The position numbers were made by a program, and so were the translations under genes. The notes under the pieces were generated by a model. The model made no database searches, was not told the DNA's origin, and worked only from the letters and a program-made list of their open reading frames with translations. From positions 1 through 52,604 of the IMG/VR virus record IMGVR_UViG_3300030098_002800: a stretch of DNA of 52,604 bases. One strand, 5' to 3'. Positions 1 to 41,969 of the stretch are shown here, in pieces; the first letter of the stretch is position 1, and each line of letters begins with the position of its first letter. The DNA is from a virus. Lineage: Duplodnaviria; Caudoviricetes.

Positions 1-2254
1 CTACAGCTGAATCATCACTATCAGCTCTTATAATTTTAGACTTTGCCCACTTAGCATATTCAAAATGCAAATCTAATACAGAGTTATAAGCTATTCTACC
101 AGATGTATTTTCAATATAATTGTTTATCTTAGAATCAACTAAAGAGTTGTCACCTTTAAACTTCTCCAATAAATCAGCTCTAGTTACCTGATAACCTTCA
201 CCTTTTACATTCCTTATAGCCTCTACTTCAGCTTGAGATAACATTTTACGAGCAACATAATCATCACCAAGCTGTTTCATATTCTGAAAAGCTAAACCAA
301 AAGCAATTTTAAAAGTACCAGATCTATTCCAATCTTCAACAATTCTATGAGCCCAAGAAGTTTTTGTTGCTATTTGACTAACAGTTCTAGCTGCTTTAGC
401 ACTAACTTTTTCCTTACCTCTTATCTGCAACTCTCCATTCTGATCAACAAATAATTTACTATCAGTTAAATAAGCCTCATCTATAGCACCTCTTGTAGCA
501 GTACTAACGTCAGCATCGGATTTAAATATAGCATCTAAGACTGTAGATTTTACACTTTTACCATCATGCCATTGAAGACCATACTTTTTAGATTGTCTTT
601 CAAACATATCTTTGTTTGCACTAGCATTTCCTGACTCTACATACCAAGCTTTAGAATCCTTTCGTGCTTTACGCCCATACTCTGTCCATTCAAACAATCT
701 TTGTGTAGCATTTCTTGCAGCTGATCTTAGATTTCCTCCCATTAATCTAAAATAAGTATAAGATGTCATCATTCTAGTTAGATTCATCATGGTTCCATCT
801 TGACTAGGGTCTCTGCTATCAATAGAATTATAAACATCTGTTAACAAATCAAGCATACTTTCAGCAGTGTCTACTAAATCTTTTCTTCCTAAAGCTTCAG
901 CTGGCTTTAAATGATAATCCATTAAATTTTTACTAGCATCAATATACGTAGCCTTAACATGAGTCTTGTAATTAAAAGTTCCAACATCATTTGTATATTT
1001 CTTCAGAAAATACCAGGGGTTTGCACTATATTGATTGTCCACAAGGTCAGTTCTACCCTTAGCCCTATCAACTATCTTATCAAAGCTATTGATTTCTTGG
1101 TTAATAGTATCTAATATATTCTTGTTATTCTCTACAGCAAAAGAAAATTGTTTTACGATATCTAAAAGGCCTAACGTATATCTAGGCATATAGCCTTTAC
1201 TTAAAGAGATTTTTCCATTATTAACATAATCTCTATCTAATTTTATTCCTCTCTCTAGAAACATTCTATCATCAATAAGCTGCTGATCATTGTAATTTAA
1301 AGGCCTACCACTCTCATCAACTGACTTTTGAAACTCAATATTGTGTACCATGGCTTCAATTCTTTTTGCAACACCATCAGCCCAGACCATATCCTTTTGT
1401 TTAGCCATAGCTTTAATTTTTTGTAGCCCTCTAAGCAATGAAATTGAGGATGATTTTCTTATCTCTTTATAGTTGTCCATCATTTTATTTAATCTTATCT
1501 TTCCAGATCTATCTAAGCCTTCAATGGTATTTATATCTGCACCCTGAAGAACGCTATTAAGGATAACATATGCTTCCCCACTACCAGCCTCTAAAAACTT
1601 CAGCATTTCATTTCTATTGGTATTCATTTTATCTTTTATAGAAGTCCTTTGAGCATAGGTAAGTTTAGGTTGGTTATATTGTTTCACTAAAGAATCATAC
1701 TCTTTATTTAACCTCTCTACCTCAATATCACCTCCACTCTTCAAACCTTTAGGCATAAGACTTTTAGCACCAAAAGATAAAGAGAAATCCTTAAACTCAC
1801 TTAAAAATTCTTTTATCTGTTTATCTGATTGAACTTGAAAGTCTCTAAAGAACTGAGTTTCATTTGTAAGCTCAGTCTCAAATCTTTTTAATTCGGGAAC
1901 ATTTTGTAATGCTGTTCTTGGTAAATGAAAGTATCTCATTACAGCACCTTTAGGTTTTGCTATAAGCTGGTTGTAATAGTTAAGACCAGCTTCAAACTTC
2001 CTTACATCTTTAAAATTAATTTGATATTCTGGATCAATTTCCTTCTTTGTATATTTCTTAAACAACCATTTAAAAGTATCCCAGTTATTCCAGTTTGCAT
2101 CTTTAACATTATTCCATTTACCAGTATCCCACTCTTTAGCTAGTGAATCCATTTTATTGAAAATAATTTGCCTGTCTTTAGCAGACATTTCTTTTTCACC
2201 TAATCCTAACTTTTTTGAAAATGATTTCAAACTACATGTAAATATACTAGACAT
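1..2254 (-). CDS. Large internal virion/ejection protein, N-terminal part (runs off window start)
   Basis: Not in the ORF track. ATG at 2254 overlaps the stop of the 3008-aa gene (TAATG). Hand translation of sampled stretches is open: MSSIFTCSLKSFSKKLG..., GGNLRSAARNATQRLFEW, and ...HFEYAKWAKSKIIRADSDDSAV at position 1. Confidence 0.8.
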   Translation of the reverse strand, partial: MSSIFTCSLKSFSKKLGLGEKEMSAKDRQIIFNKMDSLAKEWDTGKWNNVKDANWNNWDTFKWLFKKYTKKEIDPEYQINFKDVRKFEAGLNYYNQLIAKPKGAVMRYFHLPRTALQNVPELKRFETELTNETQFFRDFQVQSDKQIKEFLSEFKDFSLSFGAKSLMPKGLKSGGDIEVERLNKEYDSLVKQYNQPKLTYAQRTSIKDKMNTNRNEMLKFLEAGSGEAYVILNSVLQGADINTIEGLDRSGKIRLNKMMDNYKEIRKSSSISLLRGLQKIKAMAKQKDMVWADGVAKRIEAMVHNIEFQKSVDESGRPLNYNDQQLIDDRMFLERGIKLDRDYVNNGKISLSKGYMPRYTLGLLDIVKQFSFAVENNKNILDTINQEINSFDKIVDRAKGRTDLVDNQYSANPWYFLKKYTNDVGTFNYKTHVKATYIDASKNLMDYHLKPAEALGRKDLVDTAESMLDLLTDVYNSIDSRDPSQDGTMMNLTRMMTSYTYFRLMGGNLRSAARNATQRLFEWTEYGRKARKDSKAWYVESGNASANKDMFERQSKKYGLQWHDGKSVKSTVLDAIFKSDADVSTATRGAIDEAYLTDSKLFVDQNGELQIRGKEKVSAKAARTVSQIATKTSWAHRIVEDWNRSGTFKIAFGLAFQNMKQLGDDYVARKMLSQAEVEAIRNVKGEGYQVTRADLLEKFKGDNSLVDSKINNYIENTSGRIAYNSVLDLHFEYAKWAKSKIIRADSDDSAV

Positions 2255-5200
2255 TATCTCTCCTTAGAATTTAAGCAATCTAAATGATATTTAAGTTGCC
2301 TTTGAGTAGAACTTTCTATCGATCCTTTTTCCCCTAAATCTTTCTTCCTAATGACATCTATATCCCTTAACAATGTAGGCTTTAATCCTATGTCATCTAT
2401 TCCACCAAGATCATTACTTGCATATATCTTCTGTGCCCATTGTTCATTTAAAGGGATGCCTTGGCTTTCCATTTCTTTACTAGCTTTATATAATAATGCT
2501 GGATCTACTAACTTATCAGAGGTAGCATAATCAACCATCATCTTCGCAGCATTCTTTTTATTAGCCTCTAATGCATTTTGCATATCATATATACTTTGAT
2601 TCAATATACTTTCTTGACTCATTATACCTTTTAAGCTAGCAGGTTCTGTGTATAAGTTAGCTAATGCTACATCTACATCATGACCATATCTAGAGCTTAA
2701 TATAACCATATTTTTTAAATTTGTAATATCAGTTAAAATCTTATTTGCAAAATCTTTATTGCCATCAGCACCTCTATATTCTCCAGATGCAATTTTAGCT
2801 AATAGATTCATCATAGGTCTATTTAATCCATTTTCAGAATATATATAATCGTAAGATGATTTGCCATTTGATATTGGTCTTACAGATACAACCTTATCAG
2901 ATATATAAGGAGTTAAAGTTTGTAAAATAAAAGCTGCTTTTCTTGCATCTGTATTTAAAACTGGATTGTTAAATAGAGCTTCATATATTGCAGACTGCTG
3001 CTCTAAAGAAAAATCTATATAATCAGCTTTAGTATTAGTTCTATCTGATTTCATTTCTATCAATCCTGCTTGCAATCTTTTATACTCAGGTATAATATAG
3101 TTCATTATATCATATGCTTTAACTTTAGTTGTTGCACCAAAATCATCAATATATACAGTTTCTCCAGCAAATGCTTCAAATAACATCCTCAAGTTGCTTT
3201 GTTCTGGACCTGTTACTTGGAACCTTCTTCCGTTAACAACTATTTTATCCCAATCATTTATCTTTAATTCATTAGTCTTGCCCTTTAAAATAACTTCTTT
3301 TATATTCCCTTTTCTATCTAGTATAACTTCATTCTGTGAAGCTGTATATTCACCTTCTTTAGCGTATCTTCCTTTCTTAACAATAGGCTGTTCAATAAAG
3401 TTATCTCTAAACTTGTAAGATAATGCTTCTTCCATTTTAGCTTTAAGCTCTACTATTCTTTCTAACTGTGCTTTTTTACTTGAGATCTCCGTAGATTCAC
3501 TAACATCCTTTGTTCTTGAGAATGACTCAAGCCTTTCAATTTCAATTCTAATAGACTTTTCTTTTGATGCAAGTTCAGTAAGAAATATAGCTCTAGATTC
3601 ATCTTTAACATACTCCTTTAAGGCTATATTAAATAATTTATTATGATTTGCTGCAGTATCTTCTCCCACATTATTCTTAGTATATCCATTCTCAATCCAA
3701 TCTTGTATCTTTTTATAGTCTGTACTTACCTTACTTACAAGCCCTATACTTTTAGCTTGTATCATTTCACTATGCCCTTTAGATAACTCTCTAACAGCTA
3801 CATCGTAAGGATTTCTAGATGTTGATCCAAAGTATTGACTTGCCACTCTTAGACCTGGCTCAAAATTTATACGACTATCTATGCCTCTTGTATCATCCCA
3901 TCTTAATTTATATGCTAAATCTTTGAATACGTTATGATAGTTTTCCACAGTGGCTTTATACTTCATTCCTGAAGGATCTTCTACAACACCTTTATTGTAT
4001 TTTAAATAATTATTAATAGGATCAATCAGTCTATTCCTTATAGCATCTCTTACAAATTGATATTCTCCCATATTTATATTTTTATCTTGGTGGACTGTAG
4101 TTGTTTTACCTTTTAAATCAACAGCAACTATTTCAAAAATACCTTGTACATCTTTAGTTCCAAATAAAATTTGATTTTGTATATCAGTTATATTGTTTTT
4201 TGTTTCCATTGAAGGTAAGTTTTTATATACATCAATAAACTCTTTTGCCATCTGAGATATACCATTAACAGTATTAGTTAATCCTGCCTTTCTGTTTATT
4301 CTAAGCTGTAATGTTTTTCTTTGACCTGTAACATCAGAAGTTTCAAAGCTTAGTAGATTTGTATCATGCCTGTATATATTAGATAGGTAGGTAACAAGTT
4401 GGTGCATTTTAATAAATCTTCCTCTTGCTTTGTTAACTTCGGTCAAGGTTCTTTCATAATCAAAATCAATACCTTCCCCTCCAGCTAAAAATGGCAGTTT
4501 ATTCGCAAGCCTTCCTTTTTGTATATCTGGACTAAATAATCCATCAGAACTTAAAATTGCATCCATATCTACAGGTGTTACAAATCCTGCTGCCTTACCT
4601 GCTTCTCTCCAGAACTTGCCAGGAGCAGCGTAAAAGCTAAAACTTTTATCAAAGTCAAAGTCAGCATCTTGAGGTCTAATAGCATCTACATAATTTATTC
4701 TACTTACATTTCCTTCTTCCATCTTAGCACTAGTAGTATAAGTACCATCAGCATTTTGCTTGGCATACATTTTATTTATAACAATATCACCTACCATATT
4801 TCTAGGTTGTCTGCTATTTAAAATACCTACACTTAAATCAACAGCATCTAGTTTTATAGCTGCTTGAGAAAGATTGTCTCCAAAGTCTATAAGGTCCATT
4901 CCTTTTTTATCTACTTCAATAGCATCATTGTAAGCCCTAACATTTCTTTTTACATTATATTGATCACCAAATTGAAGCTCCATAGTATCTATATCTAATA
5001 ATTTACCATCACTATTTAATAGCATACCCTCAACAAGAACATATTTTTTACCACCTATATCGTAAACAAAAGCATCTGCTGTTCTATCTACCCCTGTTTG
5101 ATCTACAGAATATTTTATTCTTTGAATAATAGCGTTGCTTTCAGTCATTCCGTCAGGTTTAATAAAATCTTTTTGAGCCATATAATGTGAGGGTAAATAC

Positions 5201-8200
5201 TCTCCGTAAAACTGAACAGTAGGTCTGCCTCCCACTTCACTTCTTATAGTTATATCTAAATTACCAGGATCTGCTGACATAACATCTAAAGAGCCTTGAG
5301 GTACAACTCCCCCAGCAACCCCTCCATTATTTATAAAGTAGTTTATCATTCCATTTTCTAACTCTCTAACAGCCCAAGGCTCAAGTATAATGCCATTCCT
5401 ATCAAGCATAGCTGCTATACCGCTATTAATTAATGCAGGGTCTCCTACTTTAGCTTGATGCCCAAATACTTTTTGAGCTAAAGAAGTTCTATATAAAATA
5501 TCGCTATACATTCTGCCAAAGTTTCCAAATAAATTCTCTACTTTTTTAGAAACTCCTATCCATTCAGCTATGCCATTATCGTGTGAAAAATGTACACCAG
5601 TATTTGCACCAACTAATGGATCATGTTCTTTAGATATAGTTCTTAAACTCATAGCCTCCCAAGGAAGCTCAGTTATATAATTACTATAATCGGCATCTAT
5701 ATTTTTAAAGTTGCCAGTAGCATCTTTCTCTACAATAAAATCAGTCCATAGACCAGTCATATTTTTATTATCTGCTTCTATGCCTTTTATATTAGCATAG
5801 TTTTCTCTTGTTTGAGAGTTTTTATCTGACTTTAATAAGTTTATTTTATTAGCTGATTTAAAAGTTAGAATATCAACTCCCAACTCTTTCATAACCATTT
5901 CAACAGCAGGATTATATTTAAATGCTGTTTTTCCAAACCACTCTTCCCCTCTTCCATAAGTAGGGCTATTTACATTATAGTCTATTTCAGCATGAGTAAT
6001 CGTTGGCTTTATAGCTCCAGATTTAAACCCTATAATCTTACCATTAGTATCCATATGGACCATATCTGGTGTAATCCCTATCAAAGACATGGCTGTCATA
6101 TAAGCTTCCTTGGTTAGGAACATTTCTCCATCAACAATTGATTTACCAACAGCCTCTAAATCTGCCTCCATAGCAGCTCTAGTATCGTCATCTATAAGTT
6201 TATTTTGTTTTAGCTTAAGCTTAGCTCTATTTATAGCACTAAATACATTATGAAGAGTTTGTTGTGTTAAACTATTTACACCTAAATCAGAATCTTTAAT
6301 CTCGTCATCTATAGATAATGTTTTTAATTTCCTGTACTCTCCAGATGCATCAGGTTCTATAAAAGTTTTTATATTATCATAAACCTGCTTCATAAAATCA
6401 GACTCAGCATTTCTATATATAGCAGCACTCCTAAGCATATTCTCTTTAGTAGCTATATAGCCATTCTTAGGTTCAGTTAATTTTAATCTCTTAAATCTAT
6501 CCAAAACAACAGCATGCTTTAAATCTATTTCACCAGAAGCAACAACATCAGGTAAAGACAAAGGCATATCTATTATCATTCTTGTCAATTTTATAGCATT
6601 GACAATATCATCAGGAGTGTCTGCATTTTGAACCTTTTTTAGCATAGCTCTAATTGCTCTATGTTGAGGAGAATTTATACTTAAGTCACCATCATATATA
6701 GCTTTTAACCTTTGATATAATTCTCCACCTTGAAACCCTGTAGATTCAGATGCATATTGTAATCTAACATGCTCATGAATAGATCCAGCACCTTTATCTG
6801 TTCTAATTATAATAGCAGTTGACTCGTCTATTGGAATAGCTTTGTATGTTTTGCCAAATTTACTTCCCCTGCTATCTTCATCCTGTATTTTACGATGATC
6901 TCCACTTGGACCTTCTTTATATATTTCTGCTTTACCAGGCATATTTCCTATTTCTAATTGACCGCTAGCTAAAGCACCATTAATTCTAGTTAAATGTTCT
7001 CCTACTATATCTATCTCTCTGCCATTTATATCTATAACAGATTTATCTGCTAAGTATATATTACCCTGCCCAGATGTATCAAGGTACTGTATAAGGGCCA
7101 TAATACCCCTATTTTGGGCATTTCCCATTATTTTCTGATCCAACATCAGTCTACCATTTTGAAGGTCTAATTTTAGCGTTTTTACAGGAACCTTAGAAAA
7201 GTATCCAGATACTAAAGAATAAACATCTGCATCAACTTGACCAGGTGTTGGCCTTTCAAACTCAGGCATATTCATTAATTTGCTTTCTATTGCTAATTTG
7301 ATTGGTTGAACTATAAAAGATTGAAAGTTATCTGGATCAAGCTTAACATCTCCTGCTAATTTATTTAAAGAATCAACAACTTTTTGGACAGATGCTCTCA
7401 TTTTAGGATCAACAGACTGAGGATCTGTATATAAATTACCTAATAATGTTTCGGCAAATCCGACAATTTCTTTTGAAGTTCTAACTATAGACCTATCAAT
7501 TCCTAGAATTTTGTCTATATAAGGTAAAGGCATATCATACTTAACTGAAAACTGAGAAGCAGTTATTCTTAAAGCTACATCTTGTAAATCTTTTTCAGGT
7601 ATTTCATTACCTCTATCTTTTAATATGTCTGCTACAGTATCTTTTAATGCACCTTGATTTCTTATTTCAGTGTGAACATCTTCTTCAATCTTTCTTTTAA
7701 TTTGATCTAGTTTATATATATACTCTTGTTTTGCTGTAGGGCTATTTTCCCTTGAATACATTTCTTCAATAAGAGCACTAACTTCTCCCTCTCTTTTAGC
7801 CAAAGCATCTAAATAAAGATAATTCCTGTCTGTTAGATTCTTTTTAATATCATCTATAATAGTATCAATTTCAGCTTTAGTATCTTTCCATGCCTCAAAT
7901 TGTCTTTTCCAGTTAGCTCTAACATCAGCTTCTATTTCACCCCCAGATGCTTCTATATATTTTGCAAGGCTTTCTATAATACTTCCTTGTCTATCAGATT
8001 GAGATTCAAGCACAGTTCTTATAGCTTCAGCTCTACTAGTTGACATACCTCTCATGGAATTTTGAGAAATGTTCCTAGCTTTATTTAATGCATTAAACCA
8101 ATCTCCTTCTTGTCCTTGAGCAAGATCATTCCTAAAATCAACTCTAAATCTAGATCTAGTTACATCATCTACAATCTTATCATAAAATTCCCACAATTGA

Positions 8201-11200
8201 TCTTTAGTTGTTTCACTAATCTTGTTATTTCTGTGATCAGCTTCAAGTCTTTGCTTCACTATAGTTCTGTCAGGGAGTACAACTGATCCTGTACCTTGCT
8301 GATAATTCATTCTAGTGTCTTGAATTAAACTAAATAAAGCCGCTTTGCCATCAATGCCCGTGTAAACATCATTCAATCCTATCTGATCAAATGCTTTATC
8401 TATATAGAACTCTTGAAACTTTTTAAACAACTGAGGCTCAATAAATATATTACCAACTCCCTTGTTTACAGCTTCAAATAACTGAACAGCTTCATTACCT
8501 GTTATAGCTTTTACCTCTCTATTGGTAATTGTAGGATCTAAATCTATTGTAGACTTATGAAAGTTTTCAACAAAGTTTAATAGGGTTGCTTCATCTATAC
8601 CTAATGTTTCCAATTTTTTACTTACAGCTGCTAAATCTGTAACTTTAGGTGCTAACATACTATTGAAATATTGTCTTTTAAAAGCACCTATATTGTTTTG
8701 TTCTATTGAAGTTAACCCTGAACCATTCCCATCAGTTAGCATATCAAATGTTCTTATTTGTTGATCTTTAACTAACAACCTATCAAACATAATATGCCAT
8801 GAGTTATTAATAGAAATATGAGGATCCATTTCAATCCCATGAGCTTTCCATGCATCTCCATATACAAGAGACATAAGATTTTCATTCATAGATACAAATG
8901 CATTTGCTGCCTCACGTTGTTTTTCTTTTGTAATCTCTACATCTTCTTTTCTAACTCTAGTACCAGGTTTAATCCAATTATTTTTTACACCTATATTCCA
9001 TAAAGCTGAGAAAGTATCCAATGGAACAGATCCACCAAAATCTATACCTCCCTCACCTTGCATTCTAATATCAGCTGCAGTAATACTTCTACCATCTTCA
9101 TTTTCTTTTATTAATCTTTCAAGTCCTAATGCTCTATATGTTTCTATAAAGTATTGTTTCATTAAAACTTGAGGTGCCTCTATAACATTAGCTAAAGATC
9201 TTTCTCTCCATGTCTTTAATTCAAAATCCCAGTTATGCTTTGTAAGAGTATTGCCATTAAATTGAAGGTTAGATAGTTTATTTGCTATATCAAAAGCTTC
9301 ATCTGGAGTAACTTTTTCAAGATGAGATTTATCAACAGCGTTTGTATGAAACTCATTTAATATTTTTTCAGCTACAAACAATTTATCGTATGATGCAAAG
9401 GCTTCTTCAATGCTAATTTCTTTATTTAAAAGCTTATCTCCTATATACTTATTAAAGGCAGTTTTGAAATCAGCAAATCCTGGACCAACTCTATTTTGAT
9501 TTCCTTCTATAGTTTTTAGTATCATTCTAATATTGCTAAGTTCAGGAGATTTATTTAATACTAATTTTGTTATTGCTGTAGTTACAGGCTCTATACCGCC
9601 TTCAGGTTGATAAGCAAAGTTGCCCATTACTTTATAGAGTTTATCATTTTCTACTCCATAAGTTTCAAGCGATCCAAGAGTTCTTCTTAATTTATTTTGT
9701 TTTGCATTGTAATAATCCTGAACTTTGCCAGTCTCAAAGATTCTATTAAATAATTTACCATCAGCTTCCAAATGAAAACTATGAGGTCTTTTTGAAAAGT
9801 AAGCCGCTGTCATAATATTAGATGCTATTTCAGGCCATGAGTTTCCAAAGGCAGCTTTCATAGATTCTGCACTCCATCCATTATGGTATCCAGACCTTAT
9901 AACACCAGGGGCATTCATCGCTACTATACCAGCAAACATCCTAGGTAAAGAACCAAAGAAATCTTTTCCAAACTCACTAAGCCAAGCACCTGGAGCTTCT
10001 TTCATAAACTTAACTCTAGCTTCCATTAAAAAATCTTTCATTAATTTTGTACCTTCATCATCAGATTTTCCAATCCACCATTTAGATCCTAAGCTAGCCC
10101 ACTTATTACCCATACCTGAGTTTAAATAACCACCAGCTATTTCATCCATAGCAGTTAATTGAATTTGTAATTCTTTATTTGAAAGCTTATTGATATTTGT
10201 AGTCCTAGCATTAAACATGGATTTTACTGTCTTCCCAAATTGCCTCATATGGCTTTTTGATGTACCCCCTTTAATCATATGAGTTGGGCCTAATATACTC
10301 ATCCATGCACTTTCAAATACAGCAGTTGAACCCCATGCCCCTAAAGATGACATAATATTAAAGCTATAATCTTTTAATTTTGTAGCTTTGCCATACATAC
10401 CTGCTTCATATCCATATATATTCCTTTGCATTTCATGTACAGCATGCCTTATAGTGCCCATAGTAAATCCTATAGCAGCATCGTAAGCCATAGCCCCAGC
10501 AACAGCATGAGTTTTAGGCCCACCAATAGGCAACCATCTTTGAGCTGCTAAGTTTAAAATAGTTTGTGCTTCTCTTGGATTATTCTTTGAAATAATATCA
10601 AAAGTAGTATTGGCTATATCATCTACAATAGCATCATCTACAATGCCTAAAGTTTTTTGTATATTGCTTTTAATACCAGTTTTAACTGCACCTTCATATA
10701 AGACTCCTAATGCTTCATTACCACCTTGAATTAGATCTTGAGTGTCAGATGCAACTTTAAATGCATCATCCATTATAGTTTTAGCTACATCATCAGTTAA
10801 GCTTGTACCTATATCTATTCCTTTCTTTACAGCTATTTTAGATCCTTCTTCAACTAACTCTGTTGCAGCTTTTTTAGATGCATATTTAGTAGCAGCTTTA
10901 GTTCCTATTGCAGTTATTCCTGCCTTTGTTAAAGCTCCTCCTGCAAAGAATGTAGGTATTTGACCAAGAGCAGTACCTAAAGAATAACCCCATCTACCAG
11001 CAGTCCCTAAATCTTCCCAATCACCAGCTACATTATCACCAAAAGTTCCAGCAATCTTATCTTGAAAATCTTCAGCAGGAACTAATTGATCAGATTCTAG
11101 TTCATTCCATGTATCATGAACGCCTAATGTCCCCATAGAAACTTGGTCAGAAACTGCCCATGCTGCTTGTCCTAAAAATTCCCATATAGTATTTCTATTT

Positions 11201-11280
11201 CTACGAAGGTCATCTACAGTTTGTTGATGGGTTTCTTCTTCTATTATAGCCGCTATTCTATCGAGTTCTTGTTGATTCAT
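2254..11280 (-). CDS. Giant virion protein, probable virion-encapsidated two-barrel (DPBB) RNA polymerase
   Basis: 3008 aa. LNSRQPR followed ~45 aa later by DADFDFD resembles beta' NR(A/Q)P...NADFDGD and the DFDxD of crAss-like vRNAPs. Lys motifs upstream (KPTIT, GKTAFK, FKSANK). Hydrophobic Gly/Ala-rich N-terminus. Lies in the ejection-protein cluster. Confidence 0.8.
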   Translation of the reverse strand: MNQQELDRIAAIIEEETHQQTVDDLRRNRNTIWEFLGQAAWAVSDQVSMGTLGVHDTWNELESDQLVPAEDFQDKIAGTFGDNVAGDWEDLGTAGRWGYSLGTALGQIPTFFAGGALTKAGITAIGTKAATKYASKKAATELVEEGSKIAVKKGIDIGTSLTDDVAKTIMDDAFKVASDTQDLIQGGNEALGVLYEGAVKTGIKSNIQKTLGIVDDAIVDDIANTTFDIISKNNPREAQTILNLAAQRWLPIGGPKTHAVAGAMAYDAAIGFTMGTIRHAVHEMQRNIYGYEAGMYGKATKLKDYSFNIMSSLGAWGSTAVFESAWMSILGPTHMIKGGTSKSHMRQFGKTVKSMFNARTTNINKLSNKELQIQLTAMDEIAGGYLNSGMGNKWASLGSKWWIGKSDDEGTKLMKDFLMEARVKFMKEAPGAWLSEFGKDFFGSLPRMFAGIVAMNAPGVIRSGYHNGWSAESMKAAFGNSWPEIASNIMTAAYFSKRPHSFHLEADGKLFNRIFETGKVQDYYNAKQNKLRRTLGSLETYGVENDKLYKVMGNFAYQPEGGIEPVTTAITKLVLNKSPELSNIRMILKTIEGNQNRVGPGFADFKTAFNKYIGDKLLNKEISIEEAFASYDKLFVAEKILNEFHTNAVDKSHLEKVTPDEAFDIANKLSNLQFNGNTLTKHNWDFELKTWRERSLANVIEAPQVLMKQYFIETYRALGLERLIKENEDGRSITAADIRMQGEGGIDFGGSVPLDTFSALWNIGVKNNWIKPGTRVRKEDVEITKEKQREAANAFVSMNENLMSLVYGDAWKAHGIEMDPHISINNSWHIMFDRLLVKDQQIRTFDMLTDGNGSGLTSIEQNNIGAFKRQYFNSMLAPKVTDLAAVSKKLETLGIDEATLLNFVENFHKSTIDLDPTITNREVKAITGNEAVQLFEAVNKGVGNIFIEPQLFKKFQEFYIDKAFDQIGLNDVYTGIDGKAALFSLIQDTRMNYQQGTGSVVLPDRTIVKQRLEADHRNNKISETTKDQLWEFYDKIVDDVTRSRFRVDFRNDLAQGQEGDWFNALNKARNISQNSMRGMSTSRAEAIRTVLESQSDRQGSIIESLAKYIEASGGEIEADVRANWKRQFEAWKDTKAEIDTIIDDIKKNLTDRNYLYLDALAKREGEVSALIEEMYSRENSPTAKQEYIYKLDQIKRKIEEDVHTEIRNQGALKDTVADILKDRGNEIPEKDLQDVALRITASQFSVKYDMPLPYIDKILGIDRSIVRTSKEIVGFAETLLGNLYTDPQSVDPKMRASVQKVVDSLNKLAGDVKLDPDNFQSFIVQPIKLAIESKLMNMPEFERPTPGQVDADVYSLVSGYFSKVPVKTLKLDLQNGRLMLDQKIMGNAQNRGIMALIQYLDTSGQGNIYLADKSVIDINGREIDIVGEHLTRINGALASGQLEIGNMPGKAEIYKEGPSGDHRKIQDEDSRGSKFGKTYKAIPIDESTAIIIRTDKGAGSIHEHVRLQYASESTGFQGGELYQRLKAIYDGDLSINSPQHRAIRAMLKKVQNADTPDDIVNAIKLTRMIIDMPLSLPDVVASGEIDLKHAVVLDRFKRLKLTEPKNGYIATKENMLRSAAIYRNAESDFMKQVYDNIKTFIEPDASGEYRKLKTLSIDDEIKDSDLGVNSLTQQTLHNVFSAINRAKLKLKQNKLIDDDTRAAMEADLEAVGKSIVDGEMFLTKEAYMTAMSLIGITPDMVHMDTNGKIIGFKSGAIKPTITHAEIDYNVNSPTYGRGEEWFGKTAFKYNPAVEMVMKELGVDILTFKSANKINLLKSDKNSQTRENYANIKGIEADNKNMTGLWTDFIVEKDATGNFKNIDADYSNYITELPWEAMSLRTISKEHDPLVGANTGVHFSHDNGIAEWIGVSKKVENLFGNFGRMYSDILYRTSLAQKVFGHQAKVGDPALINSGIAAMLDRNGIILEPWAVRELENGMINYFINNGGVAGGVVPQGSLDVMSADPGNLDITIRSEVGGRPTVQFYGEYLPSHYMAQKDFIKPDGMTESNAIIQRIKYSVDQTGVDRTADAFVYDIGGKKYVLVEGMLLNSDGKLLDIDTMELQFGDQYNVKRNVRAYNDAIEVDKKGMDLIDFGDNLSQAAIKLDAVDLSVGILNSRQPRNMVGDIVINKMYAKQNADGTYTTSAKMEEGNVSRINYVDAIRPQDADFDFDKSFSFYAAPGKFWREAGKAAGFVTPVDMDAILSSDGLFSPDIQKGRLANKLPFLAGGEGIDFDYERTLTEVNKARGRFIKMHQLVTYLSNIYRHDTNLLSFETSDVTGQRKTLQLRINRKAGLTNTVNGISQMAKEFIDVYKNLPSMETKNNITDIQNQILFGTKDVQGIFEIVAVDLKGKTTTVHQDKNINMGEYQFVRDAIRNRLIDPINNYLKYNKGVVEDPSGMKYKATVENYHNVFKDLAYKLRWDDTRGIDSRINFEPGLRVASQYFGSTSRNPYDVAVRELSKGHSEMIQAKSIGLVSKVSTDYKKIQDWIENGYTKNNVGEDTAANHNKLFNIALKEYVKDESRAIFLTELASKEKSIRIEIERLESFSRTKDVSESTEISSKKAQLERIVELKAKMEEALSYKFRDNFIEQPIVKKGRYAKEGEYTASQNEVILDRKGNIKEVILKGKTNELKINDWDKIVVNGRRFQVTGPEQSNLRMLFEAFAGETVYIDDFGATTKVKAYDIMNYIIPEYKRLQAGLIEMKSDRTNTKADYIDFSLEQQSAIYEALFNNPVLNTDARKAAFILQTLTPYISDKVVSVRPISNGKSSYDYIYSENGLNRPMMNLLAKIASGEYRGADGNKDFANKILTDITNLKNMVILSSRYGHDVDVALANLYTEPASLKGIMSQESILNQSIYDMQNALEANKKNAAKMMVDYATSDKLVDPALLYKASKEMESQGIPLNEQWAQKIYASNDLGGIDDIGLKPTLLRDIDVIRKKDLGEKGSIESSTQRQLKYHLDCLNSKER

Positions 11281-39109: not shown

Positions 39110-39481
39110 ATGAGCCTGAAAATGCCAAGACAATGGAGCAAGAGAGTACGTGTAGAGAACGAAGCAACAGAATTAAAGCAAGACAAGAAAGATCCTATCG
39201 CTATGGCTACTACAGCAGCAGTCATTAGAGCTATTAATGAAAAGGATACAGAGTTCTTAGCTGATCTACAAGTAGTAGGTAAGATGTTCAATGTATCAAA
39301 CCCAACACCAGCAGGGCAAACAGCTATGGGTAGAGTAACAAGAACTACACTTACTGATGCTAGTGGTGCTGAGCATGTCATTGATGACGATCCAGCATTG
39401 GTTAGTAGTTATACTCAAAGTGGTATGACAATAACTAAAACTGAATCTTGTGTACTGTATGACGATGGTACTGTAAGATAA
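39110..39481 (+). CDS. First early gene, hypothetical
   Basis: 123 aa, AGGAG RBS. Confidence 0.75.
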   Translation: MSLKMPRQWSKRVRVENEATELKQDKKDPIAMATTAAVIRAINEKDTEFLADLQVVGKMFNVSNPTPAGQTAMGRVTRTTLTDASGAEHVIDDDPALVSSYTQSGMTITKTESCVLYDDGTVR

Positions 39482-39496
39482 TTGTTGTGTTTGTGG

Positions 39497-39526
39497 TATT
39501 AGGGGAGATTAATTTCTCCCTTAATA
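39497..39526 (+). terminator. Hairpin after first early gene
   Basis: TATTAGGGGAGA...TCTCCCTTAATA inverted repeat. Confidence 0.6.
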
Positions 39527-39660
39527 TTGTTAAGTAATGTATTAGTTCTCTTTTAAATATCCTAACGGGCTTGTGTGTATGTAATAATATATATACCAAC
39601 ATATACCAAACATAACCTATATTTTTTTTATAATTACAATCTTAACCAAAGGAGATTTAC

Positions 39661-39918
39661 ATGGAATCTAAATGGATTACAATAGCTGATAAGCTTATTA
39701 ATACTGAGAATCTTAACAGTTGTGAGGTATGGAAAAGTCCTTCCGATATTTGGTATCTTATTCTTGAATTTGGTGATAAATACCAAAAACAGATTAAGAT
39801 TACTAAAGGCGAAGATGCTGCTTATGATATATTAAAGACACTAAAAGTATATCTTAACTCTTTTACAATAGCAAGACCTTTGCAAATAGAAGAGAGTGAG
39901 TTAGCTCATAATGATTAA
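39661..39918 (+). CDS. Early hypothetical protein
   Basis: 85 aa, AAGGAG RBS. Confidence 0.75.
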   Translation: MESKWITIADKLINTENLNSCEVWKSPSDIWYLILEFGDKYQKQIKITKGEDAAYDILKTLKVYLNSFTIARPLQIEESELAHND

Positions 39919-39960
39919 ATATTAGGGGTAGCAGTTAATCCTGTTGCCCTTATATTTTTT
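39919..39960 (+). terminator. Intrinsic terminator
   Basis: TAGGGGTAGCAG-TTAATC-CTGTTGCCCTTA followed by a T-run. Confidence 0.7.
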
Positions 39961-39975
39961 GAAAGAATTAAACTT

Positions 39976-40195
39976 ACGGTTTAGTAGTGTAATAACTTGA
40001 AAGTGATTTAATAGTTAGTATTAATATATAAAAAGCTATTACAGTAGCAAGGTTGACATCTAGCTGTAACTGGATCAAATGGTCAACAAGTATGTTAGAA
40101 AGCTACTAGATTGCTAGTAGGGCTATGTCTTTAAGGCGTTGGGAACACTGTAGGGTTTGATCCTATAAATGATGGTTTGAATCCATCCGACCGAA
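39976..40195 (+). tRNA. Degenerate tRNA-Gln(TTG)-like element with ~148-nt insert in the D-loop
   Basis: 5' part ACGGTTTAGTAGTGTAAT. 3' part GGAACAC-T-GTAGG-GTTTGAT-CCTAT-AAAT-GATGG-TTTGAAT-CCATC-CGACCGA. D-stem GTGT/ACAC and acceptor CGGTT/GACCG pair only across the insert. Confidence 0.55.
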
Positions 40196-40241
40196 ATAAT
40201 TAAATAATTAAACTATAACTAACTAAGGAGGGCTAATAATT

Positions 40242-40523
40242 ATGCCTTGGTATATAATACTTAAAGATGTCTTTTTACCTGAGAAATGGCAAACAAACCC
40301 ATTTAAGACAGAAGGACAAAGAAAATCTGCATACGATGTTTATATGCGAGAAAAAGAGAGTCATTGGAGAACAGTTGAAAAGTTACAAGAATGTATCAAT
40401 AAACTTGAAAAGAAATATGCTAAGGTATTATTTACAAATGATAAATTAGTGACTGAGAATAATTACTTAAAAAGTATGTCATTCTTTCAGCTTATCAAGT
40501 GGTATTTTAAAAGAAACAATTAA
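40242..40523 (+). CDS. Early hypothetical protein
   Basis: 93 aa, AAGGAGG RBS. Confidence 0.7.
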   Translation: MPWYIILKDVFLPEKWQTNPFKTEGQRKSAYDVYMREKESHWRTVEKLQECINKLEKKYAKVLFTNDKLVTENNYLKSMSFFQLIKWYFKRNN

Positions 40524-40546
40524 CCTATAACAACCAAGGAGATATT

Positions 40547-41123: not shown

Positions 41124-41969
41124 ATGATGACTTTAAAAGAATTAAAAAAGAAAGCTAAAAAGACTGGAGGTAAAGTAATTAAAAGAAGTGATGGAAATTA
41201 TAGATTACATTATAAAACTATAATTGATACATCTTTATGGACTTTACCTGAAGAAATATTAGAGATTGCAAAATCAATTGATGATAATACTAAAGAAGTA
41301 GTAATCCATGGTATTATTCGTAAAAGAAAAGATATACCTAAAGGTATTTCAAAACACATATCATTTAATTCAACTAAGGCGTTTAAAAGATGGATTCGTG
41401 AAATGTATCGTAGTATGATAAGATCTGGACATAAAATAAAAGTATTAAAAGAACAATCTCATTTACCTAGAGATTCTAAATATAGAAAATCTAGTGGTGT
41501 TACTTATGTATCTGGTGTTTATTGTTATATGTGTAATAAGAAATGCCTGCAAACCTGGACTGCATTTAAAAAGAAATTAAAACCAACATGTTCAAAGAAA
41601 TGTAAGGATAGAGGTATGTATCATGATATGCAACATTTGCATGATGGTAAATGGTGGGATGTATATTCTTTAAATAAAGGTTATCATTCTATAAGAAGAA
41701 AAGATCCTAAAACAGGAAAAACTATTAGAACTTCTAGACATAGAGATAATTGGATAAAACATTATGGAGTTGAACCTAAAAAGGGATATCATCTTCATCA
41801 TATCAATATGTGTAAAGGTGATGATGATATTTCTAATTTAATGGAACTTTCACCTAGAAGACATCAGCAATTACATGGTACATTTAACGATATATGTAAA
41901 CCTCTTATGGATATGGGTATTGTGAAATTTAACAAAGATAAAGGCTATTATTTAGCCAAGGGAGTGTAA
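41124..41969 (+). CDS. HNH endonuclease with Zn-ribbon
   Basis: CxxC...CxxxC, then HR..W...LHHIN..KGDD.ISNL...HQQLH. Confidence 0.85.
   Translation: MMTLKELKKKAKKTGGKVIKRSDGNYRLHYKTIIDTSLWTLPEEILEIAKSIDDNTKEVVIHGIIRKRKDIPKGISKHISFNSTKAFKRWIREMYRSMIRSGHKIKVLKEQSHLPRDSKYRKSSGVTYVSGVYCYMCNKKCLQTWTAFKKKLKPTCSKKCKDRGMYHDMQHLHDGKWWDVYSLNKGYHSIRRKDPKTGKTIRTSRHRDNWIKHYGVEPKKGYHLHHINMCKGDDDISNLMELSPRRHQQLHGTFNDICKPLMDMGIVKFNKDKGYYLAKGV

Follow-up and report, generated by a model that had tools for sequence, protein, structure and literature searches.

A predicted composite RNA gene in an uncultured marine tailed phage, with a tRNA-Gln(UUG)-shaped body and a folded domain in its D-loop

An intergenic stretch in the genome of an uncultured marine tailed phage resembles a glutamine tRNA gene whose D-loop is broken open by 148 nucleotides of structured sequence, which raises the question of whether the two separated parts form a single gene and, if so, whether the sequence between them is an intron or the working part of the RNA. 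The stretch lies in the 52,604 bases analysed here (hereafter the window), which make up the whole of IMG/VR virus record IMGVR_UViG_3300030098_002800, a record estimated to be 94% complete. Read from its letters and from those of a homologue, positions 39977-40195 appear to be one composite RNA gene, consisting of a tRNA-Gln(UUG)-shaped body with a folded domain of an uncatalogued family in its D-loop. The composite arrangement is real and uncatalogued, and it is very probably not a classical self-splicing intron.

The minus strand of the window encodes the large and small terminase, portal, head and tail proteins and a 3008-aa protein, and the plus strand carries, from about 39.1 kb, early-type genes for an ocr-like anti-restriction protein, Erf, a primase-helicase, a RusA/Hjc-like resolvase and an HNH endonuclease (all by PHROGs and Pfam). 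The HNH endonuclease gene (41124-41969, plus strand) begins 0.9 kb downstream of the tRNA-shaped gene. No integrase, reverse transcriptase or RNA ligase was found among the 33 proteins scanned with PHROGs and the 37 scanned with Pfam, scans that took in every listed window ORF of at least 200 aa. The window has a GC content of 30-37%, its strand skew flips near 39-40 kb and its genes carry bacterial-type Shine-Dalgarno sites. Among cultured phages the best TerL identity to the window is only 25%, and those TerL relatives all infect bacteria.

The tRNA-shaped body, like every feature described below, is on the plus strand and comes in two parts. The 5' part (39977-39993) consists of the acceptor strand CGGTTTA (39977-83), the spacer GTA, the D-stem strand GTGT (39987-90) and the first D-loop letters AAT (A14, A15 and U16). 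The 3' part (40142-40195), for which there is a partial Rfam tRNA match, an ARAGORN drawing and a check of the letters, takes up the D-loop again with GGGA (40141-40144, giving G18, G19 and A21; the G at 40141 was counted with the insert in the borders of the sequence-only reading), followed by the D-stem strand ACAC (40145-40148), the anticodon arm GTAGG/GTTTGAT/CCTAT (40150-40166, anticodon TTG at 40157-59), a variable loop of four nucleotides (AAAT), the T arm GATGG/TTTGAAT/CCATC (40171-40187, T-loop TTTGAAT) and the acceptor strand CGACCGA (40188-40194), then the discriminator A. In the ARAGORN drawing the D, anticodon and T stems are full, and the acceptor stem has five pairs followed by two mismatches.

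The sequence-only reading of this DNA had proposed a tRNA-Gln(UUG)-like shell with a 148-nt insert in its D-loop, and both the letters and the coordinates of that proposal are confirmed. It had further called the shell imperfect; the short acceptor stem, the T-loop TTTGAAT and G32 are indeed seen, with mismatches where it had described an acceptor bulge, but the lack of an encoded CCA is not a defect, as the intact tRNA-Met genes of related phages do not encode it either. The features that make the window body poor for decoding are its 5-bp acceptor, the T at position 56 and the G at position 32. The native sequence scores 17.5 bits against the Rfam tRNA model (RF00005), below the gathering threshold of 29, with model positions 9-63 covering 40135-40187, and Rfam at curated thresholds gives no match in the window. 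ARAGORN finds no tRNA gene and no tmRNA in the native window; with intron options it returns nothing from the native sequence at default settings, and at lowered thresholds assorted and untrustworthy calls.

When 39994-40141 is deleted in silico, ARAGORN calls tRNA-Gln(ttg), a call given by 15 of 750 start/end combinations, the cut of the sequence-only reading among them. The ARAGORN call on the spliced form is nevertheless weak evidence, since after shuffling of the 300 nt upstream 44 of 60 sequences still yield a tRNA-Gln call at some cut. Under a stricter rule, set post hoc and demanding at least five contiguous acceptor pairs, four of four D-stem pairs and a spacer of 2-3 nt, 35 of 5000 shuffles match.

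A homologue establishes the reality of the split architecture. Viral contigs searched with TerL yielded 597 confirmed relatives, the best 80 of which were kept as loci, and one of these 80, L005, is a related marine phage contig whose TerL is 88% identical to that of the window. It contains an insert of 124 nt that can be aligned end to end with the 148-nt insert of the window (52 of 85 columns identical in the cores, or 61%), placed between the D-stem strands GCTC and GAGC, which are 131 nt apart. The tRNA around it lies just upstream of a tRNA-Met, and has the anticodon UAA, six of seven acceptor pairs, complete D (4/4), anticodon (5/5) and T (5/5) stems and a T-loop TTCGAGT; its 3' part alone scores 33.3 bits against the Rfam tRNA gathering threshold of 29, and ARAGORN calls tRNA-Leu(taa) for 135 of 192 in-silico removals. 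A homologous insert thus interrupts another tRNA at the corresponding point of its D-loop, and on this ground the split architecture is accepted as real.

This result bears directly on the idea that the locus is a product of chance or an attP-type remnant, in which the phage would integrate by means of a copied 3' portion of a host tRNA and the 5' half would be fortuitous. Such an origin agrees with the 3' portion alone being the best tRNA-like part, and with the readiness of ARAGORN to accept random 5' halves (the 44 shuffles above), whereas the 5' half is rarely matched under the stricter rule and sits at the position predicted from L005, no integrase is present among the ORFs scanned and the entire arrangement recurs in L005 around another tRNA. 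L005 goes most of the way to refuting this origin, which is the least probable of the explanations weighed here.

In both phages the insert is flanked by the letters A14, R15, G18, G19 and A21, the 5' strand of the D-stem ends 8 nt before a common GAAAGT, and a common TAAGG precedes the 3' strand of the D-stem by 8-10 nt, placing the predicted point of entry in the D-loop between U16 and G18 (16/17 and 18). At the borders chosen earlier the insert does come after a U and have G as its last letter, as was then observed, but these borders are ambiguous by about 3 nt. The search for homologues with changes between the separated halves, as had been suggested, finds them in the D-stem, GTGT/ACAC in the window and GCTC/GAGC in L005, with three of the four pairs differing on both sides, and at the tertiary pair 15-48 the window has A-U where L005 has G-C. 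Every pair of the three inner stems is formed in both bodies. The two bodies are about as alike as unrelated tRNAs, their fold being kept, and the exons (about 50% identical) are more diverged than the insert core (61%), as a mobile intron shared by two unlike tRNAs would produce. U33 and A37 are retained in each anticodon loop, and both anticodons (UUG in the window, UAA in L005) read the phage's commonest codon of their family, the phage using 377 CAA against 89 CAG codons for Gln and TTA for 440 of 879 Leu codons.

The insert (39994-40141), delimited by alignment and scored by covariance model R1 at 101.9 bits in the window and 85.5 bits in L005, is closed by a 5-bp helix read from the sequences, in which AACTT (39994-39998) pairs with GG(C)GTT (40135-40140); its counterpart in L005 is ATGCC/GGTAT, so that, counted by eye, two of the five pairs are changed on both sides and two on one side (C-G to U.G). 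Its large internal loops hold the conserved motifs GAAAGTRA, CTATRTCT and TAAGG. The core (40021-40098), defined by pair counts and RNAalifold, is a three-way junction closed by a 9-bp stem (40021-29/40090-98) and containing hairpin H1 (GCTA/TAGC, 40035-48, loop TTACAG at 40039-44) and hairpin H2 (40052-87, outer stem GTTGAC/GTCAAC, inner stem ATCTAG/CTGGAT, loop CTGTAA at 40064-69). The stems ATCTAG/CTGGAT and GTTGAC/GTCAAC had been pointed out before, and the first is kept in L005 and the second in part (four of six pairs). Further stems named then have fared less well: the hairpin CTACTAG/ATTG/CTAGTAG (40103-40120) is present but variable, with no counterpart in L005, and AATAGTT/AGCTATT and the alternative pairing AGTAGC/GCTACT exist in the window but are without homologue support.

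The six-nucleotide loops of H1 and H2 are perfectly complementary in the window, and in L005 they read TGTCAG/CTGACA, with two pairs changed on both sides. The linker between H1 and H2 is only 3 nt, so both stems and an intramolecular loop-loop helix can hardly coexist, and the complementarity would therefore represent a pseudoknot for which H1 has to unfold, or else an interaction between RNA copies. In the core alignment 93.5% of 62 cells are paired, compared with 28-44% when the partners are slid by 1-3 columns, and RNAalifold recovers the insert stems independently. Three core pairs have changes on both sides, two of them in the loop-loop pairing, and 52 of 500 shuffles of the two sequences reach the observed values; support from covariation is thin because only two sequence types are available. 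The folding energy of the core is not exceptional against shuffles (z of -2.46 in the window and +0.76 in L005). Within the window the hairpin motif has five matches (four of them with two mismatches) against 2.5 expected, and so is not a recurrent feature. Pairing of the insert with its own anticodon loop was considered and dropped as being at chance level, the window 6-mer occurring in 276 of 3000 shuffles and that of L005 in 819 of 3000; each insert also 'matches' the anticodon loop of the other.

The nature of the insert was sought among known classes of intervening sequence. The sequence-only reading had entertained a minimal self-splicing intron, and a guanosine-dependent group I intron of this kind in the D-loop could draw on the U before the insert and the G at its end, on the order of the pseudoknot strands (TTACAG ... 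ATCTAG-CTGTAA-CTGGAT), which recalls that of P3 and P7, and on GTTGACATCTAG, which bears a loose resemblance to the group I R element. The smallest natural group I introns known are about 200 nt long, and the inserts are 148 and 124 nt. No Rfam family except tRNA matches 39700-40500 at E ≤ 10, and no group I model does so on that stretch or on the L005 type, L235 (of the L005 type) giving only tRNA and two weak unrelated matches. Inspection of the window and L005 bears out the earlier statement that canonical P1 and P7 could not be found, as there is no shared guide and no P3/P7-type core: ATTACA of the window is complementary to TGTAAT of its exon, but L005 has no counterpart, so no guide pairs with the 5' exon in both. 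There is likewise no room for P4-P6, P8 or J8/7, and ATCTAG/CTGGAT is a local hairpin, unlike P7. A group I intron is thus very improbable, and the minimal form proposed earlier is not upheld.

Two other classes were rejected as candidates. A script search for an archaeal bulge-helix-bulge (BHB) intron found no motif at matching positions, the window candidates being rich in G.U pairs and destructive of the D-stem and those in L005 lying elsewhere. An rRNA-type intervening sequence removed by RNase III does not fit a closing helix of 5 bp with a bulge, which is not a duplex of about 20 bp.

The gene forms a cassette of its own, about 240 nt long, with a terminator before it and the ribosome-binding site of the next ORF after it. 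The upstream ORF (39661-39918) is closed by a terminator-like hairpin and T-run (39923-39962, hairpin 39923-39952) found by a terminator scan, and the cassette (39975-40214) is framed by a 9-nt direct repeat, AATTAAACT, with one copy at 39966-39974 on its left border and another at 40206-40214 on its right, the latter followed by ATAACTAACTAAGGAGG and then by the ATG of the next ORF (40242). The tRNA-shaped gene thereby lies between the hairpin and the ribosome-binding site of that ORF. The terminator region is common to other phage contigs without the cassette: in runs X5, X6 and X8 only 39926-39974 aligns and the sequence beyond is unlike the window, and in the contigs of relatives AATTAAACT runs straight into ATAAC..AAGGAG and a gene. 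The repeat frame, together with the terminator and first repeat shared by these contigs, marks the RNA gene as a movable cassette at a recurrent intergenic junction. The early region is hypervariable among relatives, and neither ORF flanking the cassette has a homologue in the 80 TerL-related loci. The motif AATTAAACTWTA was examined as a repeated promoter and set aside, as it is not enriched over the whole window (49 matches against 54 expected).

In contigs from three of the four sequencing runs examined the cassette is found with 0 to 4 differences over 39400-40267, and no joined (insert-less) form or allele occurs in the DNA contigs of the four runs. None of the 20 runs listed for the locus is recorded as RNA. 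Two diverged fragments, one from X8 and one from X6, were seen only in run contigs. The X8 run contains one contig of 228 nt that is a diverged copy over 40016-40147, in which G40063A and C40070T form a compensatory pair in H2, G40072A converts a G.U pair to A-U and C40084T a G-C pair to G.U, and the fifth substitution, A40099G, falls just 3' of the 9-bp stem. Its indels are single-base losses in loop and junction and the loss of 10 nt from the variable hairpin across 40102-40114, and its flanks do not align with the window, so that this copy may sit in another body.

These variants also bear on the possibility that a small selfish element has entered a tRNA gene that is now decaying, with the insert useless to the phage and the interrupted tRNA dead. 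Degradation of the window acceptor, position 56 and position 32 would suit such a history, as would the location of the cassette in a hypervariable region and its absence from most relatives (none of the 80 loci by blastn, and only L005 by model R1). Decay is nevertheless unlikely, as the three inner stems are fully paired in both members and 15-48 covaries, the structure of the insert is kept by compensatory changes both between members and within the population, and the cassette is nearly constant in three of the four runs.

Searches for further members returned only two sequence types in the collections searched, the window type, which is also that of L221 (identical over 940 nt), and the L005 type, which is also that of L235 (identical over 934 nt). 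A blastn search with 39920-40245 against the 80 TerL-related loci gave no match, and the phage collection returned no DNA match. Model R1 retrieved only the window and L005 from 85 sources, with L069 at 18.4 bits (E of 4.4), and nothing from five further whole records. The L069 hairpin (nhmmer E of 0.0013) was considered as a member and dropped, as it has neither tRNA halves nor a partner for its loop. Pattern scans of viral contigs returned 7, 55 and 6 stretches with one true member each (the other stretches in the scan of 55 being coding DNA), a single stretch that was again the L005 contig, and 63 stretches in which the L005 contig was the only member, three being of the L069 type, about 50 a single unrelated sequence of crAss size and the remainder coding DNA; one scan of viral contigs was empty, with no true member, and so was a second. 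In metagenome contigs 32 stretches included two true members, identical to the window and L005, and in prokaryote genomes 19 stretches included none.

In sister phages the slot of the cassette holds a tRNA-Met followed by a GOLLD RNA. An intact tRNA-Met(cat) is found by ARAGORN in six of the 80 TerL-related loci, sharing both strand and slot with the cassette, and the GOLLD 3' domain in five of 81 sources, that of L011 scoring 137 bits (E of 3.9e-36), just under the gathering threshold of 150. GOLLD (RF02032) has no match in the whole window at E ≤ 5. A recent preprint describes GOLLD env-38, from a marine sample, as located downstream of a Met-tRNA, and reports that tRNAs adjoin GOLLD or occur inside it, in its linker (bioRxiv 10.1101/2024.12.08.627333).

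The choice then lies chiefly between removal of the insert and its retention. If removed, the insert would be an intervening sequence of a new kind, in which the closing helix joins the ends of the D-loop and the product is a tRNA reading CAA. It could be cut out by an RNA-catalysed reaction or by host or phage nucleases, and the ends either rejoined (for example, by an RtcB-type ligase) or left as a two-piece tRNA held together by the acceptor and D stems. That two unlike tRNA bodies carry this insert at a common site speaks for removal, and so do anticodons that match the commonest codons (CAA and TTA), the decoder-like anticodon loops and the near-canonical L005 body, a closing helix with both-side changes right at the exon borders and the HNH endonuclease gene 0.9 kb downstream (41124-41969). 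Unclassified introns have also been reported in the tRNAs of Lak phages (PMC6784885). Weighing on the other side, bacteria are not known to have a pathway for removing an insert of this sort, the locus matches no ribozyme or intron family in either member, a conserved BHB motif is lacking, the window proteins scanned include no RNA ligase, the DNA contigs of the four runs show neither a joined form nor an allele free of the insert, and the 5-bp acceptor and T56 of the window are poor for a working tRNA. Removal as an intron of a new kind is accordingly regarded as possible but doubtful. A more specific version, which is distinctly unlikely, is that the insert belongs to a new class of very small mobile intervening elements that targets D-loop position 16/17 of phage tRNA genes and removes itself by a chemistry that is neither group I nor BHB, with GAAAGU, CUAURUCU, UAAGG and the loop-loop pseudoknot forming its active site.

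An unspliced tRNA-bodied structured RNA is tentatively the first choice over a spliced intron, at rather less than even confidence and with the two readings close. The new non-coding RNA on a tRNA scaffold that the sequence-only reading offered as its second option is compatible with everything seen and is ranked slightly first, without being set apart decisively by the sequence comparison. In this mechanism the RNA would work without splicing. Its tRNA body would fold into the usual L-shape, with A14, R15, G18, G19 and A21 kept and 15-48 covarying, and would supply tRNA-type end processing, stability and recognition. The insert would leave the elbow through the 5-bp closing helix and act as the working part, its two complementary 6-nt loops forming a pseudoknot or linking RNA copies, and the gene would occupy the slot where relatives carry a tRNA-Met beside a GOLLD RNA. 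An unspliced role is favoured by a window body that is degraded for decoding while its insert stays structurally constrained, by the lack of recognisable splicing chemistry and of an RNA ligase among the 33 PHROGs-scanned and 37 Pfam-scanned proteins, and by a cassette that is unchanged in contigs of three of the four runs; tRNA-like modules within larger non-coding RNAs, such as tmRNA and YrlA, are moreover well known, and sister phages join tRNAs to ornate RNA in this slot. Against it, the anticodons fit the commonest codons, U33 and A37 are kept and the L005 body is near-canonical: the match of anticodon to codon and the retention of U33 and A37 fit working decoder tRNAs, and such tRNAs would need the insert removed.

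To our knowledge, the tRNA genes of bacteria and phages are thought to be interrupted only by group I (rarely group II) introns, in the anticodon loop or T-loop, and in the literature searched no title or abstract opening pointed to a D-loop insert in a phage tRNA. The domain described here, conserved, folded and not of group I, interrupts the D-loop in two distinct phage tRNA bodies. Splicing, should it occur, would represent an undescribed route of tRNA maturation in bacteria or phages, and if the insert has an excision chemistry of its own, this would be a new kind of interrupted or composite tRNA gene.

Group I introns are found in the anticodon loop of cyanobacterial tRNA-Leu(UAA) and Azoarcus tRNA-Ile and in the T-loop of tmRNA. 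The resemblance to those of tRNA genes lies in a conserved pseudoknotted RNA that interrupts a tRNA gene, in the presence of the same element in different tRNAs and in the UAA anticodon of one host tRNA (that of L005), whereas the element described here is in the D-loop, measures 124-148 nt, has no Rfam match and lacks a P1 guide and a P7 core, and its splicing is conjectural. Archaeal non-canonical (BHB) introns and split tRNAs share with it a D-loop insert around which the mature tRNA domain can fold, but no conserved BHB is present here, the Shine-Dalgarno sites are of bacterial type and the cultured TerL relatives infect bacteria. The tRNA genes of Lak megaphages contain introns called 'enigmatic' that fit no intron class, according to Devoto et al. 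(2019, PMC6784885). Phage tRNA genes with conserved inserts outside the known classes are common to both systems, but the Lak phages are another phage group from another habitat (gut megaphages).

Larger functional RNAs that include a tRNA-like module, and keep it without splicing, are represented by tmRNA and the YrlA-type Y RNAs, and the present gene is proposed to work likewise. Both of these RNAs lack an anticodon arm, whereas here the predicted cloverleaf is kept in full and ARAGORN finds no tmRNA. The phi29 pRNA is a small phage RNA in which two complementary, covarying loops link copies hand in hand; the insert has two such loops and is otherwise without likeness to it in sequence or structure, and multimerisation of the present RNA is a conjecture from loop complementarity. 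GOLLD is found in the same genomic slot in sister phages, and its covalent link between a tRNA and an ornate RNA has a parallel here, but in the present gene the domain is lodged within the tRNA instead of next to it and is 5-6 times smaller, and GOLLD has no match in the window. If unspliced, the gene would be a natural 'tRNA scaffold' RNA in the early-gene slot where sister phages carry the tRNA-linked GOLLD RNA, and might throw light on why such fusions of tRNA and ornate RNA occur in phages.

The early slot that in the window holds the interrupted tRNA is occupied in five sister phages (L011, L059, L046, L044 and L064) by the 3' domain of GOLLD RNA, which suggests that GOLLD has a marine home in this group of phages. 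The domain lies at 1999-2406 on the minus strand of locus L011, where it matches with 137 bits (E 3.9e-36), slightly below the GOLLD gathering score of 150, and a tRNA-Met(cat) gene is found about 640 nt upstream of it.

Within the window, consecutive early ribosome-binding sites are each preceded, just upstream, by the motif AATTAAACT(ATAAC), present at 39966-39974, 40206-40219 and 40518-40531, and it is at this motif that the contigs of other phages change over to different genes, with loose ends at 39974 and 40531. The motif, which shows no enrichment across the whole window, resembles a junction at which cassettes are shuffled, or else a phage promoter. A free-standing HNH endonuclease gene (41124-41969; PF13392, E 4e-07) follows the interrupted tRNA at a distance of 0.9 kb and could possibly help to mobilise the cassette or the insert. 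The virion module includes a giant protein, encoded on the minus strand by an ORF of 3008 amino acids (2254-11280) with no PHROG match and no significant Pfam match.

Another hairpin, GACGTCTAGCTGAAACTAGGTC, similar to the H2 hairpin in the core of the window insert, occurs in L069 (3440-3750, minus strand) within a noncoding leader roughly 530 nt long; this leader is also present in L115, L120 and L131 and has a tRNA (Rfam 40.6 bits) about 500 nt upstream. By R1, the covariance model of the insert, the leader does not belong to the insert family (18.4 bits); it is possibly another structured RNA. An AT-rich intergenic stretch containing GAGGACGTCTAGCTGCAACTAGATGG is identical in L089 and about 50 further loci from the pattern scan, on large phage contigs (50-150 kb), most of which come from a single metagenome. 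No tRNA lies near it in these loci, and it is probably unrelated to the interrupted tRNA of the window.

L005, a relative with a homologous insert, and L011 have in common an element roughly 70 nt long, immediately upstream of their tRNAs (L005 575-646 and L011 3209-3303, both minus strand), reading GACCTCrGGACTAGG...CTACCnnGAGG...CTAGTCC. By nhmmer it connects these two loci only, and it has no Rfam match at E<=10; judged by eye, its interleaved helices resemble those of an HDV-type double pseudoknot.
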